DNA of 64,000 nucleotides from Escherichia phage RB69, in the sequence record NC_004928.1; one strand, 5' to 3'. Each line of letters begins with the position of its first letter. Position 1 is the stretch's first letter. Under the pieces are notes generated by a model. It saw only the letters and a program-made list of their open reading frames with translations. It ran no database searches and had not been told where the DNA came from. Positions 29,309 to 50,056 of the stretch are shown here, one piece after another. A program made the translations under genes and the position numbers.

Positions 29309-31396
29309 CTATCCTTGGACAAATTTAAACGGAACTGATTCTAAATCCATTAAAGATGCTAACAATTTCAAACCTTTAGGTGCGCTAGTTTTTTCTACAA
29401 ATGAAGAGAACGATACCGGCTCATCTGATTCGATTTCACCTGTCATAGCAACCACCTCACCTGTTTCCATGAGAACATCACCATCATAAATGACAGCTTC
29501 ATCTAACTGGTCTGAGGACATGACTTCAGCTTGAATAAATTTAAGGTTGGATTCTAAACCTGCACCAGTGTCAGATGACGCATCTGTAATTTTATTTATC
29601 TGCAAGAGAATGCCTCTAGGCAAAATAATTTCTTGCTCATTAGGGTGATTACTCAACTGTCCTGGATAAATCACGTTAACTTTATGAGCACCATCAATAG
29701 CCCATCCAACGTTAACACGGATTTGTTCTGGTGCATGCATAGCTGTTCTTACTTGACTAGGAGAAATAGTAACACCTTCGTCATTATTGTCAATGTTAAG
29801 CTCTTTGCGAACGTTCTTCAGGAGCAAGTCCAAGGGCAACGTTCTCTTTAAACCCACCGAAAATAATAGGAGCTTGTGAAGTGGAAACATAGTTTCTGAA
29901 GTAGAATACCTTATTTTTAACCATTGCTTCGTAAATAGGCATTCTGATAGACTGAGCTCTATATAACGTTTGTCCTTCAGGTAACGGTCTCCATTTAAAA
30001 ACGCCGAATCAAGACCATCAATAGCGCGTTTAACTTCATCTTCATCTGCAACATCGTAAAAATCTGGTTTATAACGACCTAACAACATATTATTGATATC
30101 GGTATACGCAGAAGAGGCATATTCACGAATAGCTCGTTTTTCAGCAACAGAGTATTGTTTAGGGTCCCGATTCATTGTTATATTAAAGGTGCCTCTAGCC
30201 GATTCTCGTGCATAAGTATACATCACATTAGACAAGAACGCTGATTTACGTTGTTTCCAAGTTTTTTCAGATACTTCAGCTAAAACGTCGTCGGCCAGTT
30301 GGAAATTATCACGTCTAAAATCTTCAAACCATTCGTCTTTAATAGAGTCTGCAATCTCATTTGCAGCTTCAACAAAAGCAGCTAATGCTTTAACAGATGT
30401 TGTTTTTTCAGTTTTAATTTTCTTAGCAAACTTTTCTAAAGTTGGCTTAATAACACCACCATAAGAAACTTCATCAGCAAATTTAAAGGATTCATCAATA
30501 CGATTATAAATCTTATTTTCGATATCAGCAACTAAAGTGCCTTTTGCTGTGGACGATGCTTGGGCTAGTACTATTTCATATGCTTCAGGAAGTAATTCGG
30601 CTGTAGCCGGGCCACTAACTTCTTTAGCAGAATTTTCGTATTTCTGGAATAACTCACCTTCTTGGCGGTCCGCTTCTAAAGATTGACTTGCTGCAATAGC
30701 ACGACGAGAAATTTTAGTACGAGCAATAACAGGCTTATCTTTACGTTTTTCTTCTACAGCAGCAATAGAACCAGCGATAGCCGTTTCTTTGGTGACCTTT
30801 TCGCCAGTCTTTTTACTCACATAAACTTCGCCAACATCAGAATCTACTTTCGTGTACAACTCTGTGTTAATGTTAGGGATGCCTTTAATATCTTCAATGT
30901 TGGCATTTTTACGAACCATCATCACATAGGTGTGTTTACCTGTGAATTGATACATTGCCGACAATACTTTAAAACGACCACCGGTTTTAGTAGAAACTAA
31001 ACGAGCAAGAAGAGTTTGAAGCTGCTGTCCACGTCCTTTCAATTTCTTGGTAGGGAATCGGAACAGAACTGCATCCATACGAAGAGCTTTAACCTGTTCA
31101 TATACTGTATTGAAAATGGTGTTGATTGCATCAATAGGAGCAGGACCAAGGCCATTTTTCAATTCAGCGAGATTACCCTTTTCAGATAGACTCATAATAA
31201 CAACATGAGCGTATTTGTCGCCAAGTTTAACTTGTTTTACAGCATCACCTTCGGAAAGGTAAGAGAATAAGCGAACTACGATGTTTGTATCGATATCACC
31301 AATTTTCCAGACTTGTGGAACTTTAGCTTTAGGGTTCAAATTGACGACAGGAAGACTGCCTTCAGATTCAAACACTTCATTTAATTGTTCAGACAT
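29309..31396 (-). CDS. alt: Alt ADP-ribosyltransferase; the ORF is open (695 codons) but the catalytic R/STS region appears out of frame
   Basis: Position next to gene 30 as in T4; ExE-like NEQEIILPRG in frame; LYR and YVSTS motifs present only in an alternative frame across about 29800-30008. Confidence 0.8.
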   Translation of the reverse strand: MSEQLNEVFESEGSLPVVNLNPKAKVPQVWKIGDIDTNIVVRLFSYLSEGDAVKQVKLGDKYAHVVIMSLSEKGNLAELKNGLGPAPIDAINTIFNTVYEQVKALRMDAVLFRFPTKKLKGRGQQLQTLLARLVSTKTGGRFKVLSAMYQFTGKHTYVMMVRKNANIEDIKGIPNINTELYTKVDSDVGEVYVSKKTGEKVTKETAIAGSIAAVEEKRKDKPVIARTKISRRAIAASQSLEADRQEGELFQKYENSAKEVSGPATAELLPEAYEIVLAQASSTAKGTLVADIENKIYNRIDESFKFADEVSYGGVIKPTLEKFAKKIKTEKTTSVKALAAFVEAANEIADSIKDEWFEDFRRDNFQLADDVLAEVSEKTWKQRKSAFLSNVMYTYARESARGTFNITMNRDPKQYSVAEKRAIREYASSAYTDINNMLLGRYKPDFYDVADEDEVKRAIDGLDSAFLNGDRYLKDKRYIELSLSECLFTKQWLKIRYSTSETMFPLHKLLLFSVGLKRTLPLDLLLKNVRKELNIDNNDEGVTISPSQVRTAMHAPEQIRVNVGWAIDGAHKVNVIYPGQLSNHPNEQEIILPRGILLQINKITDASSDTGAGLESNLKFIQAEVMSSDQLDEAVIYDGDVLMETGEVVAMTGEIESDEPVSFSSFVEKTSAPKGLKLLASLMDLESVPFKFVQG

Positions 31397-34266: not shown

Positions 34267-34680
34267 TCAAGTTAGTATTGTATCATCTTTTGTTAGACCA
34301 CTAGCCATGCTGTGCTTCAAAATTTTTCCTTTAGAGGCTTGTAAGGCATCACGAAACCCCTTGTTTTGGATCGCGGCTTCAAAATATGCATTTGTGTATA
34401 ATTCTTTCCACGCTTCGGAGTATCTTGAAAATGGAACTCCTAACCAGAAGAGAGTCCCACGGTCCTGAGCTCTTGCATAAGACCTTCCTGCTTGCTGTGC
34501 AGCCAATCCAGACAACCCAAATATACTATGTTGTTGTTCAACATTTTTCACCTTACATCCTTGGAGAAATCCTTCAAGACCTCCGAATTGAATACCATCC
34601 ATAACAAAAGGCCATTGAGCAAAGTTACTTAATGCACATGACGGCCACTTGAAATTACTTCTAATCTCTAACTCAGGCAT
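34267..34680 (-). CDS. NADAR/YbiA-family (DUF1768) protein (30.3-like)
   Basis: SNFAQWP...DGIQF...E.F.Q pattern matches recalled E. coli YbiA (SNFAAWPIKVDGKTWPTSEHYFQ); start taken at MPELEIR. Confidence 0.65.
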   Translation of the reverse strand: MPELEIRSNFKWPSCALSNFAQWPFVMDGIQFGGLEGFLQGCKVKNVEQQHSIFGLSGLAAQQAGRSYARAQDRGTLFWLGVPFSRYSEAWKELYTNAYFEAAIQNKGFRDALQASKGKILKHSMASGLTKDDTILT

Positions 34681-34888
34681 CTTTAACACTTATAATTTCA
34701 ACATCAGCCCAATGACCATAACCAGGTATACGGTCTTCGATAGATAAATTTCCGTCATTTTTAGGCATTTTAATTGACGTAACGTATGGTTCTAAACGAT
34801 TTTCTGCGTGTGGAGAAACATCTGTCACACGATAAGTAACTTCAATCGTTTCCATACCAAACAATTTCTGGATTAATTTTTTAAGCAT
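34673..34888 (-). CDS. Hypothetical protein (71 aa)
   Basis: ORF in compact operon arrangement. Confidence 0.5.
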   Translation of the reverse strand: MLKKLIQKLFGMETIEVTYRVTDVSPHAENRLEPYVTSIKMPKNDGNLSIEDRIPGYGHWADVEIISVKDA

Positions 34889-37368: not shown

Positions 37369-37665
37369 TTACATAAGAAGCAAACGTTCGACCGGAGTAC
37401 CATCAACCGAAATTACTTTATCAAGGCGGAAAGAACGCCACTGACCTAACTTGGTATCGAATGCTCGAACTGATTCACGAGGTTCAGAACGAACTTCTGT
37501 TGCCGGATTGTTATTTTCATATTTGACTTCAAGTTCATCGCGCGAGGCAAACATCGTACGAATATCACCGTTAGCCTTTTCAAATACAACACAATGAACG
37601 CCTACAGACAGAATAGTTTTAATACGTTCACGAAGAACCATAGTTTCTTGTTCAGTTAAAATCAT
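37369..37665 (-). CDS. Hypothetical protein (98 aa) downstream of cd
   Basis: ORF 37369..37677; ATG at 37665 (MILTEQET...) sits directly after the inferred ancestral cd stop. Confidence 0.55.
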   Translation of the reverse strand: MILTEQETMVLRERIKTILSVGVHCVVFEKANGDIRTMFASRDELEVKYENNNPATEVRSEPRESVRAFDTKLGQWRSFRLDKVISVDGTPVERLLLM

Positions 37666-37741
37666 ATTATTCACCACAAAAGTTTCGGATTTGTTCCCAA
37701 TTCAGAGAACGAAGATTATTACCGAGAAGTACTGAATTACT

Positions 37742-38251
37742 TCAATACCAGCTTGGTTTTAGAATGTCTGCCCAATTTTCAGGAGATCGGTTGTATAATT
37801 CTGCGTATACAACCTTTTTAATACCTGACTGCGTAATAGCTTTAGTGCAATCAGGACACGGAGAAAGCGTAGTATATAACGTAGCGCCTTCAATAGAATT
37901 ACCTTTACGAGCTGCAAACAAAATTGCATTCAATTCCGCATGGATTTCGTTATTAGCAGACCATGCACTATGAGCGGCCCGATGTTCTTTAGCCAAAACA
38001 AAATTATCTGCCCGTCCAAATGCTGTAGTGCCTTCTTTATGTCCAGCAACGATGGCCGGGCTTGATTTATTCTTCAACCAACCATTTTCGGATGCATGTT
38101 CGCAACAGTTAACGCCACCTGCGGGTGAACCATTATATCCAGTAGAGATAATGCGTCCATCTTTTTCAATGACCGCACCAACTTTCCATGAACAACATTT
38201 TGATTCTTGAGAAATCAAATAAGCAATTTGAAGATATGTGCTAGCTTTCAT
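37742..38251 (-). CDS. cd: dCMP deaminase, apparently truncated at the C-terminus by 3' frameshifts
   Basis: Zinc-binding motifs HAELNAI and PCPDC; N-terminus matches recalled T4 Cd; ORF is 169 aa versus about 193; remaining C-terminus readable in shifted frames to 37667. Confidence 0.85.
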   Translation of the reverse strand: MKASTYLQIAYLISQESKCCSWKVGAVIEKDGRIISTGYNGSPAGGVNCCEHASENGWLKNKSSPAIVAGHKEGTTAFGRADNFVLAKEHRAAHSAWSANNEIHAELNAILFAARKGNSIEGATLYTTLSPCPDCTKAITQSGIKKVVYAELYNRSPENWADILKPSWY

Positions 38252-38502
38252 TATAGTGTTCCGTATACGCGAGTTGCTTCAACTAAACCGTCACTGCCTA
38301 ATTTAAGGCTAGTAATCTGGTCACCATCTTTAGGATTAACGATTATGAGAAAAGAACGTGGAGATTCTTGAATAACTCGTAATGTTGCATCTTGGAAACG
38401 TTCAGACACCTTATTGATGAGTGCTTGAGCAAATTCTTGTACTTTAATCTGAAATTCGTGTACTGTAATTGGGGTTTCACTTAGCCTTTCGATTTCCCTC
38501 AT
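38251..38502 (-). CDS. Hypothetical protein (83 aa; cd.x)
   Basis: ORF. Confidence 0.5.
   Translation of the reverse strand: MREIERLSETPITVHEFQIKVQEFAQALINKVSERFQDATLRVIQESPRSFLIIVNPKDGDQITSLKLGSDGLVEATRVYGTL

Positions 38503-39228: not shown

Positions 39229-39229
<1 letters not shown>
39038..39229 (-). CDS. Hypothetical protein (63 aa; cd.x)
   Basis: ORF. Confidence 0.5.
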
Positions 39230-40315
<1,086 letters not shown>

Positions 40316-43699: not shown

Positions 43700-44872
43700 T
43701 TAGAAATATTTTTTGTATGAATTGATTACATTTTGGTCTACATCATTATCAATTTGTGCGACAAGATAAGAACTGATTTCAACTTCCTGAGGAGCTGCTT
43801 GAACTAAATCAGAGTTCAGATATTCACGAATCCAAGGATACGGATGCTTGGTCGGAGCATCAGTAATTGGACATGGCAAACCGCACTGTTTCATACGAGA
43901 CACAGTCAAGTAATCAACAAAAGCACACATACTCTGTGTATTGATACCTGGACATGTACCGTCTTTAAAGAGGTGTGCAGCCCATTCCTTGTACTTGACT
44001 ATTAACTTCCATAAAAATGTCAACTGCTTCTTGTTCACATTCTTTAGCAATTTGAACCCACTCATCGCCATCAGTACCAGATTGAAGTTGACGGATAATG
44101 TACTGAGTACCCTGAGATGGAGTTGTTCGTCACGAGCAATGAACTTCATAATCTTTGCATTACCTTCCATAATTTCCATATTTTTATGGAAGTTGAAAGT
44201 ACATGCAAATGATACGTAAAAACGAATAGCTTCTAAGGCGTTGATAACATGCAAACAGAGATAAAGAGACTTCATTAAATCGCGCTTGGCGTTAAACATT
44301 ATTTCTTCGTACATCTCAATATCATTCTGCTGGCATGAGCCTATTGAACACTCATAAACTTCCTTAGCATTTTCCCAATTACGAGTCTTGACTAGAACAT
44401 CGTCATAATATTTACCTATTGATTCAGCTCGTTTCATGATTGCTTCGTCTAATACAATCTCATCAAATACTTTGGATGGATCGGTATAAAGATTTCGCAT
44501 AATATGAGTATATGAACGAGAGTGAATAGTTTCACTGAATGTCCATGTTGCAACCCACGTATCTAATGAAGGGTCGGAAATCAGTGCCATAAGTACCGCA
44601 GATGGGGCCCTGCCTTGGATAGAATCCAATAATGATTGATACTTAAGATTGTTTGTACAGATGTCCTGTTGGAACTGAGGAAGCTTATTGAACTGTGCAG
44701 AGTCCAACATCAAGTTTACCTCTTCGGGGCGCCAGAAAAATGACAGGATTTCTATAAGTTCTTCAAAAACTTTATGACGCTGAATATCATACCGTGCAAG
44801 ACCAAGACCAGAACCAAAGAACATCGGTTCGTTCAAAACATCGACTTGTTGTGTATTAAAAACTGTACTCAT
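43700..44872 (-). CDS. nrdB: Ribonucleotide reductase small subunit NrdB; intron-less, ORF open but about 43 codons after the RDE.LHL iron-ligand motif appear out of frame
   Basis: 390 aa ORF; in-frame IARDEQLHL then atypical codons; shifted frame gives GTQYIIRQLQSGTDGDEWVQIAKECEQEAVDIFMEVNSQVQ, resembling recalled E. coli NrdB [39 protein letters not shown]. Confidence 0.85.
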   Translation of the reverse strand: MSTVFNTQQVDVLNEPMFFGSGLGLARYDIQRHKVFEELIEILSFFWRPEEVNLMLDSAQFNKLPQFQQDICTNNLKYQSLLDSIQGRAPSAVLMALISDPSLDTWVATWTFSETIHSRSYTHIMRNLYTDPSKVFDEIVLDEAIMKRAESIGKYYDDVLVKTRNWENAKEVYECSIGSCQQNDIEMYEEIMFNAKRDLMKSLYLCLHVINALEAIRFYVSFACTFNFHKNMEIMEGNAKIMKFIARDEQLHLRVLSTLSVNFNLVLMAMSGFKLLKNVNKKQLTFLWKLIVKYKEWAAHLFKDGTCPGINTQSMCAFVDYLTVSRMKQCGLPCPITDAPTKHPYPWIREYLNSDLVQAAPQEVEISSYLVAQIDNDVDQNVINSYKKYF

Positions 44873-44927: not shown

Positions 44928-47183
44928 TTAAAGCTTACAAGCAGAGCAATCTTCAGCTTTAGGTGTTTCTAATTCATAGTCATCTGTACCTGACCCATCA
45001 CGAGTGTTATGATAGTAGAGATTTTTTCCGCCAAAGTACCAGAAGTAAAGCAGATCGTCAAGCATTACCGACATTGGCACTTTACCTTTCTCAAATACAG
45101 CAGGGTCATAATAAGTATTAGCAGAAGCAGATTGGCACACCCATTTCAACATGATAGCAACTTGGGTCAAATAAGGTTTATTACCTTTCTTAGCAAGTTT
45201 CCACGCGTAGTCGTAAAGACTCATGTTATGTTCGATATTAGGAACAACCTGTCGGAAGTTGCCTTCTTTAGATTCTTTAATACTTACAGGTCCACGAGGT
45301 GGTTCTATACCATTTGTGCTATTTGAGACTTGACTGCTTGATTCACATGGCATGAGAGCACTAAGTGTACTGTTACGAATTCCATGTTCTTTTGAGTTCA
45401 GCTCGAAGTTCTTCCAGTCACAGACGTAGTTCGGGGCTGCGATTTGGTCAATCTTTTTATTGTACCAGTCGATAGGTAATTCGCCTCTAGACCATTTAGT
45501 GTCTGAATAATACTCACAAGGTCCTTTTTCTTTGGCGAGTTTGATTGAAGCTTTGATAAGGCCATATTGCAATCTCTCGAACAATTCATGAGTCAAATAG
45601 TTAGCGTCTTCATATGAAGCAAAGTTAGAAGCTAACCATGCAGCATAGTTCGTCACACCGACACCGAGATTTCGACGCTTTTTAGCTTTTAAAGCTTCTG
45701 GAACCGGATAATCTTGATAGTCTAACAGGTTATCAAGTGCACGTACTTGTACTTCAGCAAGTTCATTAATTTTATCTTGGTCTTGCCAATCAAATTTATC
45801 TAATACAAAAGCAGATAACGTGCATAAACCAATTTCAGCATCAGGACCATTCACATCATTAGTTGGAATAGCGATTTCACAACATAAGTTACTCTGACGA
45901 ATTGGAGCTTTTTCACGAATAAACGGAGTGTAGTTATTCGTGTTATCAACAAACTGTGGATAAATTCGAGCAGTACCAGAACGTTCAGTCATGAACAATT
46001 CAAAGAGTTCTAGTGCTTTGATTCTTTTCTTTCTGATTGTTGGGTCTTTTTCAGCTTTCTCATAAAGCTCACGGAATTTATCTTGATCTTCAAAGAATGA
46101 GTAATATAGTTCGCCTGACATTTCGTGAGGGCTAAATAAAGTAATATAATCATTTTTACCAAGGCGTTCCATCATGAGGTCATTAATCTGAATTCCGTAG
46201 TCCATATGTCGAATACGGTTTTCATCCACGCCTTTGTTATTTTTCAGAACTAATAGGTTCTCTACTTCTAAGTGCCACATTGGATAATACGCTGTAGCAG
46301 CACCACCACGAATACCACCTTGAGAACAAGATTTTACTGCAGTTTGGAAATGTTTCCAGAATGGAATAACACCCGTATGTCGAACTTCACCCATACCGAT
46401 CTTAGAACCTTCTGCACGAAGCATACCAACGTTGATACCGATACCAGCTCGTTTAGAAATATATTCAATAATTGATGCTGAAGTTTTGTTAATAGATTTT
46501 AACGAATCACCGGCTTCAATAACTACACAACTAGAGAACTGGCGAGTTGGAGTACGAGCACCTGCCATAATTGGGGTTGGCAATGAAACTTGATGAGTAG
46601 AAACGGCATCATAAAAACGAATAATATGTTTCAAACGGTCATGAGTTTCGTCTTGGTGTAAGGCCATGCCAATAGCCATGATAGCAAACTGGGGAGTTTC
46701 ATAAATCTTACCAGTTGTTTTATCTTTAACCAGGTATTTTTCTTTAAGCTGCATAGCACCAGCATAAGTCAGATCAAAATCTCGCTCATGTTTAATCCGA
46801 GAATCAAGATAAATGATTTCTTCTGCAGAATATCTAGACAACAACTCAGGATCATATTTGCCTTCATTAACACAATAAGAAATATGGTCGATAAAAGCAG
46901 GCGGTTCAAACTGCCCATATACATCTTTACGAAGTGCAAACATTAGCCCTTTGGCGGCGACATACTGATAATCAGGTTCTTCGACAGAAATCGAGTTAGC
47001 TGCAACTTTAATACAAATCTTCTGGATATCTTTGGTGCTCATCCCGTCGACAAGATGGGTCTTAATTTCTTCGTACAATTCATATGGGTCGATTTGTGTT
47101 CCTTCACATTGCCAAGTTAAGACTTGAATAATTTTCTGTGCATCAAAATTTTGGGATACACCACTGCTCTTAGTTACTTGCAT
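44928..47183 (-). CDS. nrdA: Ribonucleotide reductase large subunit NrdA
   Basis: 751 aa; active-site region SNLCCEIA, C-terminal redox cysteines (CSACKL); alignable with recalled E. coli NrdA. Confidence 0.95.
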   Translation of the reverse strand: MQVTKSSGVSQNFDAQKIIQVLTWQCEGTQIDPYELYEEIKTHLVDGMSTKDIQKICIKVAANSISVEEPDYQYVAAKGLMFALRKDVYGQFEPPAFIDHISYCVNEGKYDPELLSRYSAEEIIYLDSRIKHERDFDLTYAGAMQLKEKYLVKDKTTGKIYETPQFAIMAIGMALHQDETHDRLKHIIRFYDAVSTHQVSLPTPIMAGARTPTRQFSSCVVIEAGDSLKSINKTSASIIEYISKRAGIGINVGMLRAEGSKIGMGEVRHTGVIPFWKHFQTAVKSCSQGGIRGGAATAYYPMWHLEVENLLVLKNNKGVDENRIRHMDYGIQINDLMMERLGKNDYITLFSPHEMSGELYYSFFEDQDKFRELYEKAEKDPTIRKKRIKALELFELFMTERSGTARIYPQFVDNTNNYTPFIREKAPIRQSNLCCEIAIPTNDVNGPDAEIGLCTLSAFVLDKFDWQDQDKINELAEVQVRALDNLLDYQDYPVPEALKAKKRRNLGVGVTNYAAWLASNFASYEDANYLTHELFERLQYGLIKASIKLAKEKGPCEYYSDTKWSRGELPIDWYNKKIDQIAAPNYVCDWKNFELNSKEHGIRNSTLSALMPCESSSQVSNSTNGIEPPRGPVSIKESKEGNFRQVVPNIEHNMSLYDYAWKLAKKGNKPYLTQVAIMLKWVCQSASANTYYDPAVFEKGKVPMSVMLDDLLYFWYFGGKNLYYHNTRDGSGTDDYELETPKAEDCSACKL

Positions 47184-49940: not shown

Positions 49941-49970
49941 TTTATTTTCCTCTCATTTGTTGATAAGTCT

Positions 49971-49999
49971 ATAGTATCATGTTTAAAGGAAAAGTAAAC
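49971..49999 (-). promoter_or_regulatory. Early promoter (GTTTAC, 17 nt, TACTAT) upstream of the frd.3-like gene
   Basis: Read on reverse complement. Confidence 0.5.
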
Positions 50000-50025
50000 A
50001 ACTTTTTTTGGCAATTTACAGATAC

Positions 50026-50049
50026 TCAAAAGGGAGACCGAAGTCTCCC
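50026..50049 (-). terminator. Rho-independent terminator downstream of gene 32 (GGGAGAC-UUCG-GUCUCCC plus U-run)
   Basis: Third identical copy of the 18-nt hairpin. Confidence 0.75.
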
Positions 50050-50056
50050 TAATTTA

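Follow-up and report, generated by a model that had tools for sequence, protein, structure and literature searches.

Escherichia phage RB69 in all likelihood encodes an intact, 193-residue dCMP deaminase (Cd) of the T4 type, and the shortened enzyme annotated in its reference record, NC_004928.1, would be an artefact of the deposited sequence. The analysis covered a 64,000-nt stretch of that record (hereafter the window, whose numbering is used throughout), in which three extra single bases, all private to the deposited record, disrupt the reading frame of cd. The features of the gene and its surroundings are as follows.

37742..38251, minus strand: annotated, truncated cd ORF of 169 aa, RB69 NP_861914.1 / AAP76123.1 / Q7Y4T4 (ORF list, translation, exact protein look-up)
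37742..37744, minus strand: premature TGA stop, which arises in the shifted frame
37667..38251, minus strand: full cd gene in the window, 585 nt; 582 nt and 193 aa without the three extra bases (repaired translation)
37369..37665, minus strand: gene 31.1, 98 aa from the ATG at 37665, downstream of cd and unaffected

As deposited, the cd ORF starts with the ATG at 38251 and runs for 169 codons in translation, ending ...ENWADILKPSWY (in a longer form of the terminal stretch, ...YNRSPENWADILKPSWY) before the TGA at 37744..37742, as established by direct reading and translation. In translation, the second frame after the TGA reads NQAGIEVIQYFSVIIFVL followed by a stop, and the original frame resumes as SNSVLLGNNLRSLNWEQIRNFCGE, closing with a TAA at 37669..37667, which sits one base ahead of the gene 31.1 ATG at 37665..37663. 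An earlier reading made from the letters alone (the sequence-only reading) had described an ORF of 169 aa ending in WADILKPSWY, QAGIEV in the next frame, and an original frame that then continues to a stop at the start of the downstream gene, and translation bore out all of these points. Its estimate of about 25 lost C-terminal residues is likewise close to the about 24 conserved residues that are missing from the annotated ORF. The resumed C-terminal frame is not a product of chance, because the DNA that now lies downstream of the ORF matches the intact cd of relatives at every base.

The assignment of the gene to cd, also made in the sequence-only reading, is confirmed by the match of the 169-aa ORF to PF00383 (93.5 bits, Pfam cut-off 25), by the zinc-binding and catalytic motifs HAE (HAELNAI) and PCPDC (SPCPDC), and by the alignment with T4 Cd. 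Both the score and the H-A-E and P-C-x-x-C motifs place even the truncated ORF in the cytidine/deoxycytidylate deaminase zinc-binding family. The T4 Cd type is further defined by dCMP-to-dUMP deamination under allosteric control by dCTP and dTTP. The AGIEV strand is absent from the deposited ORF, which ends ...ILKPSWY, and is present after removal of the three private bases, as well as in the independent RB69-type assemblies. The neighbouring gp31.1, Cd.2, and gp31 were identified as exact RB69 proteins by exact protein look-up.

Alignments with relatives (A1 and A2) revealed three separate 1-nt insertions within 35 nt of cd, and no deletion. The insertions were located from the alignments and indel lists, and their letters are given on the gene strand; together with a private substitution they make up one cluster of 71 nt.

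37755..37756, minus strand: insertion 1, C to CC; CTAAAACAAGC becomes CTAAAACCAAGC
37727..37728, minus strand: insertion 2, T to TT; GTACTCTCG becomes GTACTTCTCG
37722..37723, minus strand: insertion 3, G to GG; CTCGTAAT becomes CTCGGTAAT; the total is now +3 nt and the original frame is back
37792, minus strand: substitution private to the reference, Cd N154 vs D, 36 nt upstream of insertion 1

The sequence-only reading was right that closely spaced indels break the frame of cd, and wrong as to what they are: in place of one insertion near 37750 and one deletion near 37737, the alignment contains three +1 insertions at about 37755, 37727, and 37722, and the distance from the start to the final stop of cd is 585 nt in the window vs 582 nt in relatives. 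After insertion 1, the shifted frame reads ...ILK, then PSWY, then TGA, and the original frame is later regained because the three insertions sum to +3 nt. Each insertion is the doubling of a single base, and the adjoining A4 run is unchanged, a pattern that would be atypical for replication slippage. Dropping one base from each doublet yields a 193-aa protein ending ...ADILKQAGIEVIQYSRNNLRSLNWEQIRNFCGE. The sole difference between this repaired protein and the re-sequenced Cd is at residue 154, which is N in the reference and D in the re-sequenced copies, the compared relatives, and T4.

Whether repaired or re-sequenced, RB69 Cd aligns with T4 Cd (PDB 1VQ2, 193 aa) over residues 1–193 without gaps (E = 1.6e-94); the repaired protein is identical to T4 Cd at 138 of the 193 positions. 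The two proteins share the HAE and PCPDC motifs and the C-terminal pattern ...AGIEV...NL..LNWE.I..FCGE, and the T4 gene, like that of RB69, is placed between cd.2 and 31.1. The T4 C-terminus cited in the sequence-only reading is correct, as the 1VQ2 sequence ends ...DILRNAGIEVFNVPKKNLNKLNWENINEFCGE. In contrast to T4 Cd, the deposited RB69 gene has three extra bases and its ORF ends at 169 aa. If this truncation were real, the protein without the AGIEV strand would probably be unstable or inactive, because even a minimal cyanophage dCMP deaminase of 138 aa (4P9C) keeps that strand.

The window was placed in Mosigvirus by megablast against 50,697 phage records, and the relatives annotate cd as 582 nt and 193 aa. 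The exact protein look-up placed the 169-aa Cd on a single contig, the 167,560-bp RB69 reference. Its 90% cluster has 91 members, and among those listed all the others are 193 aa, so that no other Cd ending at the equivalent of ...ADIL, which would have spoken for a natural C-terminus at this point, was seen there. The Cd proteins of PhAPEC2 (AHV82913.1), phiC120 (YP_010090049.1), and mar005P1 (VCU43287.1) share the 90% cluster and the gene neighbourhood with RB69, and past the frameshifts their DNA agrees fully with the window; unlike the deposited RB69 protein, all three are 193 aa, without the insertions. No insertion was present in 149 close Mosigvirus records, each of which spans 98 nt against the 101-nt query, with an identity of at most 97.0% (98/101). 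Exact-pattern scans of IMG/VR for the triple insertion, insertion 1, insertions 2 and 3 together, and insertion 3 gave 0 matches, a result of low weight as that collection holds one contig with this cd region (L010), in which cd is intact. The same kind of scan of the JGI metagenomes for insertion 1 also gave 0 matches. Literature searches for a published erratum or note on the RB69 cd frameshift, or on errors in the reference, found none.

A presence/absence polymorphism was observed at the spot upstream of cd. In most Mosigvirus relatives, a 993-nt gene for DAHP synthase (phospho-2-dehydro-3-deoxyheptonate aldolase, aroF/G-like), an auxiliary aromatic-amino-acid biosynthesis gene, lies directly upstream of cd, and it is absent from RB69, its Logan twins, and mar005P1.

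L001 769-1761, L003 39843-40835, and L004 40222-41214: DAHP synthase gene, mapping to the window junction at ~38251

Independent RB69-type assemblies were found by means of the exact gp31.1 protein, which is present on nine contigs, eight of them Logan assemblies of public runs. Three of the Logan contigs (L005, L007, and L008; three runs, two accession series) were set against the window in the adjoining cd region. Identity to the window is 99.68% over 6.3 kb for L005 (SRR16629527) and 99.82% over 20.3 kb for L008, a 54-kb contig from SRR16634598. For L007 (SRR29299747), five differences from the window were counted in 1,649 nt, four of them 1-nt indels; they are the three cd bases, one A in a run after rIII, and position 37792. 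All three contigs are without the three extra cd bases. A complete 193-aa Cd is encoded by L005 and L008; L007 covers the 3′ part of cd only, and there its frame is the same and equally intact. A difference in base counts among reads had been named as evidence that would count against real indels in the phage, and these gp31.1-exact assemblies, which lack all three bases, supply that evidence by proxy. The truncated Cd that the sequence-only reading implied for the phage is not supported.

The assemblies can be tied to RB69 by further proteins. The exact RB69 distal tail-fibre protein gp37 (1,103 aa) was found on eight contigs and the exact Hoc on nine; gp37 is strain-specific, because its 90% cluster has two members only. 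One run, SRR16629527, holds both the exact RB69 gp37 (L023) and an intact cd (L005). Judging from the exact strain-specific proteins and the 99.7–99.8% DNA identity, we take the Logan assemblies, whose runs are unlabelled here, to be RB69 or an immediate sibling. In L006/L009 (SRR29299748), 21 substitutions were observed within ~155 nt (window 34375-34530) of a contig that is otherwise RB69-identical, a pattern suggestive of a small patch recombined from another T-even phage.

The differences between the reference and its re-sequenced counterparts extend beyond cd. Alignment of the window with L008 across 20.3 kb gave 37 differing columns (23 substitutions and 14 indel columns), and these fall in ~10 clusters of no more than 250 nt each, with 100% identity in the kilobases between. 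When L008, L005, L009, and L007 were compared together with L003 and L004 (the 96%-identical relatives PhAPEC2 and phiC120), 20 of the 23 substitutions and all of the 1-nt indels set the reference apart from every other sequence, so that 11 one-base indels and 20 substitutions are private to it over the 20 kb. In the direct comparison, the differences belonging to L008 itself amount to one 3-nt in-frame difference and three bases at 34270-34273. In a count of singletons, the window has 23 private 1-2-nt indels, or 4.5 per 10 kb, with an indel/substitution ratio of 0.084, whereas 15 other focal sequences have 0–3.1 per 10 kb (median 0.5; L008, 0), a rate in the window ~9 times the control median. 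Look-ups by way of UvsY and gp36 led to ordinary Mosigvirus genomes of ~96% identity and not to the near-identical RB69-type contig, and the private indels outside 27370-47666 were accordingly judged against these more distant relatives. The private changes are listed below.

29813/29984, minus strand, ORF 29309..31396: Alt scramble, a private +1/-1 pair and two private substitutions; ~57 aa out of frame vs L008 and all relatives
34527-34530, minus strand, ORF 34267..34689: 30.3-like ORF (PF08010; named 30.3 in relatives), TATG vs GTCT elsewhere; HS vs RR
38410-38498, minus strand, ORF 38251..38502: Cd.2 change, a private extra C in a CCC run and three private substitutions
39709-39949, minus strand, 39229..40128: PseT changes, six private substitutions in 240 nt; 3 amino-acid changes
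43991-44112 (indels 43993/44112), minus strand, ORF 43700..44872: NrdB scramble, a private +1/-1 pair; ~40 aa
44744-44748, minus strand: NrdB, missing codon near the N-terminus, EI vs EKS
45390/45413, minus strand, ORF 44928..47183: NrdA scramble, a private +1/-1 pair 23 nt apart; 8 aa, KNFELNS vs EELRAEL
10817/10826; 13321/13472; 49692; 49953-50050; 52365; 61890/61893: further small indels private to the window, relative to 3-9 relatives of ~96% identity, which may be real lineage differences

Several of these changes alter conserved proteins. In NrdB, the scramble takes the place of residues shared with E. coli R2 by conservation: the reference reads ...LHLRVLSTLSVNFNLVLMAMSGFKLLKNVNKKQLTFLWKLIVKYKEW, whereas the re-sequenced NrdB reads ...LHLKGTQYIIRQLQSGTDGDEWVQIAKECEQEAVDIFMEVNSQEKEW, matching E. 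coli R2, and the score against E. coli R2 (1PIY) is 355 bits for the reference and 425 bits for the re-sequenced protein. The reference Alt and NrdB each stand alone in their own 90% cluster. Cd.2 has 83 aa with an altered N-terminus in the reference and 78 aa in nearly all relatives and in the RB69-type Logan contigs, and the TATG at 34527-34530 looks like a local misread when set against the other sequences. The reference forms of Cd, Cd.2, Alt, NrdB, NrdA, and PseT were each found on one contig, and the corrected Cd, NrdB, and Alt on 7–8 Logan contigs. The further private indels sit at the start of gene 22, in a small ORF between genes 23 and 24, downstream of gene 32, in the C-terminus of rnh, and in gp37; rnh is a 290-aa ORF in the window and has 305 aa in relatives.

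Judged by these alignments, a pair of sisters of which one holds all of the private states, in small clusters, is not the picture of divergence and is that of local errors in one record. This reading is strengthened because a third of the private states are one-base indels, several of them wreck conserved segments, and the resulting proteins were never seen again. For cd, the deposited sequence would contain a 71-nt low-quality stretch in which three bases were each entered in duplicate (C to CC, T to TT, and G to GG) and position 37792 was miscalled. Of the extra bases, the first would push the cd frame into the TGA, and the three together would add 3 nt and bring the natural C-terminus back in frame. 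The likely cause would be a base-calling or finishing error, for example in a region covered by poor read ends only. We infer this error rather than observe it.

The record resembles other early Sanger-era phage references with frameshift errors, in which private 1-nt indels and miscalls occur in short clusters of one old record and are, as here, contradicted by all later sequencing. What sets cd of RB69 apart from that class is that its errors sum to +3 nt, so that the frame is regained. A parallel exists in the same phage group, in which the annotation of T4 uvsW / uvsW.1 was revised after re-sequencing (PMC1524935). Several of the indels private to the RB69 reference come as frame-restoring sets, which is odd for random errors and hints at manual editing during finishing.

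Against an error in the record, it can be argued that the Logan contigs could derive from sibling stocks that diverged from the reference stock. On the rival reading, three real +1 insertions would have turned a dispensable gene into a pseudogene in the sequenced RB69 stock. Such a Cd would be without the last core beta-strand and the C-terminal segment and probably inactive, and dUMP would be supplied by the gp56 dCTPase/dUTPase route. The deposited sequence does read so, and the 169-aa ORF keeps HAE and PCxxC and passes the Pfam threshold. The genes cd, alt, nrdA, and nrdB are dispensable for laboratory growth of T4, and real lesions in them would for that reason not be lethal. We nevertheless consider a genuine truncation improbable, since the lesion does not reproduce: the three runs with exact gp31.1, one of them also with gp37, have an intact cd. 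It would also require that this record gained ~31 mutations of its own in 20 kb, with 1-nt indels making up a third, where evolution would be expected to leave mostly substitutions in similar number in sister lineages and the twin lineage L008 has essentially none; it would further require the frame scrambles of NrdA, NrdB, and Alt. The reference versions of the proteins were never re-observed, whereas other exact RB69 proteins were re-observed 8–9 times. Neither the doubling of single bases next to an intact A4 run nor the restoration of the frame past a stop codon fits this explanation, and selection for frame "compensation" cannot have acted, because the TGA separates the first insertion from the later two. 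That the reference stock truly carried all the lesions, and so represents a heavily mutated laboratory lineage with a truncated, probably inactive Cd and scrambled NrdA, NrdB, and Alt, is decidedly improbable; if true, RB69, an arabinosyl-hmC phage, would need neither a dCMP deaminase nor an aerobic ribonucleotide reductase of its own for normal growth.

Two further readings in which the deposited sequence is correct have an almost negligible probability. Programmed recoding, by which ribosomes would shift or bypass to make full-length Cd from the deposited sequence (cf. the T4 gene 60 bypass and +1 frameshifting), would account for the exact recovery of the original frame and for downstream residues that are those of the conserved Cd C-terminus. 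However, recovering QAGIEVIQYSR would take three separate +1 shifts in 35 nt, and one bypass starting at the codon ahead of the TGA would leave out the conserved QAGIEV strand. By direct reading, there are no matching take-off and landing codons, as TAT precedes the TGA and no TAT follows downstream, and the arrangement is absent from the 149 relatives and from the 99.8% identical assemblies. Recoding was rejected on these grounds: the arrangement is unconserved, three shifts are needed, and there is no slippery site. A contingency locus, in which the polymerase would slip reversibly at a hypermutable tract and so turn cd on or off as a form of bet-hedging, is scarcely credible either. Slippage-based loci have been proposed for T2 and T4 (bioRxiv 10.1101/2025.10.21.683753), but there is no homopolymer or repeat tract at any of the three cd sites, the A4 run beside them has kept its length, and no length variation occurs at the three sites among the 149 relatives or the Logan assemblies. 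With no repeat tract and no polymorphism among relatives, this candidate was also rejected.

Errors in the deposited record thus remain the best explanation, with consequences for users of that record. As a model phage, RB69 is in wide use, for instance for its DNA polymerase and its arabinosylated DNA, and its species in Mosigvirus bears its name. The RefSeq and UniProt entries for its Cd (NP_861914.1 / Q7Y4T4, 169 aa) appear to carry sequence errors, and in this window alone those for Cd.2, Alt, NrdB, NrdA, and PseT appear erroneous as well, and probably several others. Users of the RB69 proteome would be misled in comparative genomics, structure prediction, mass-spectrometry databases, and the inference of gene loss. 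A corrected RB69 reference would be worthwhile, and the useful outcome of this analysis is that probable errors of a widely used record are now listed. For the phage itself, the finding implies no new biology and its practical value lies in curation: the true Cd of RB69 would be an ordinary T4-type, zinc-dependent enzyme that converts dCMP to dUMP and feeds thymidylate synthesis.
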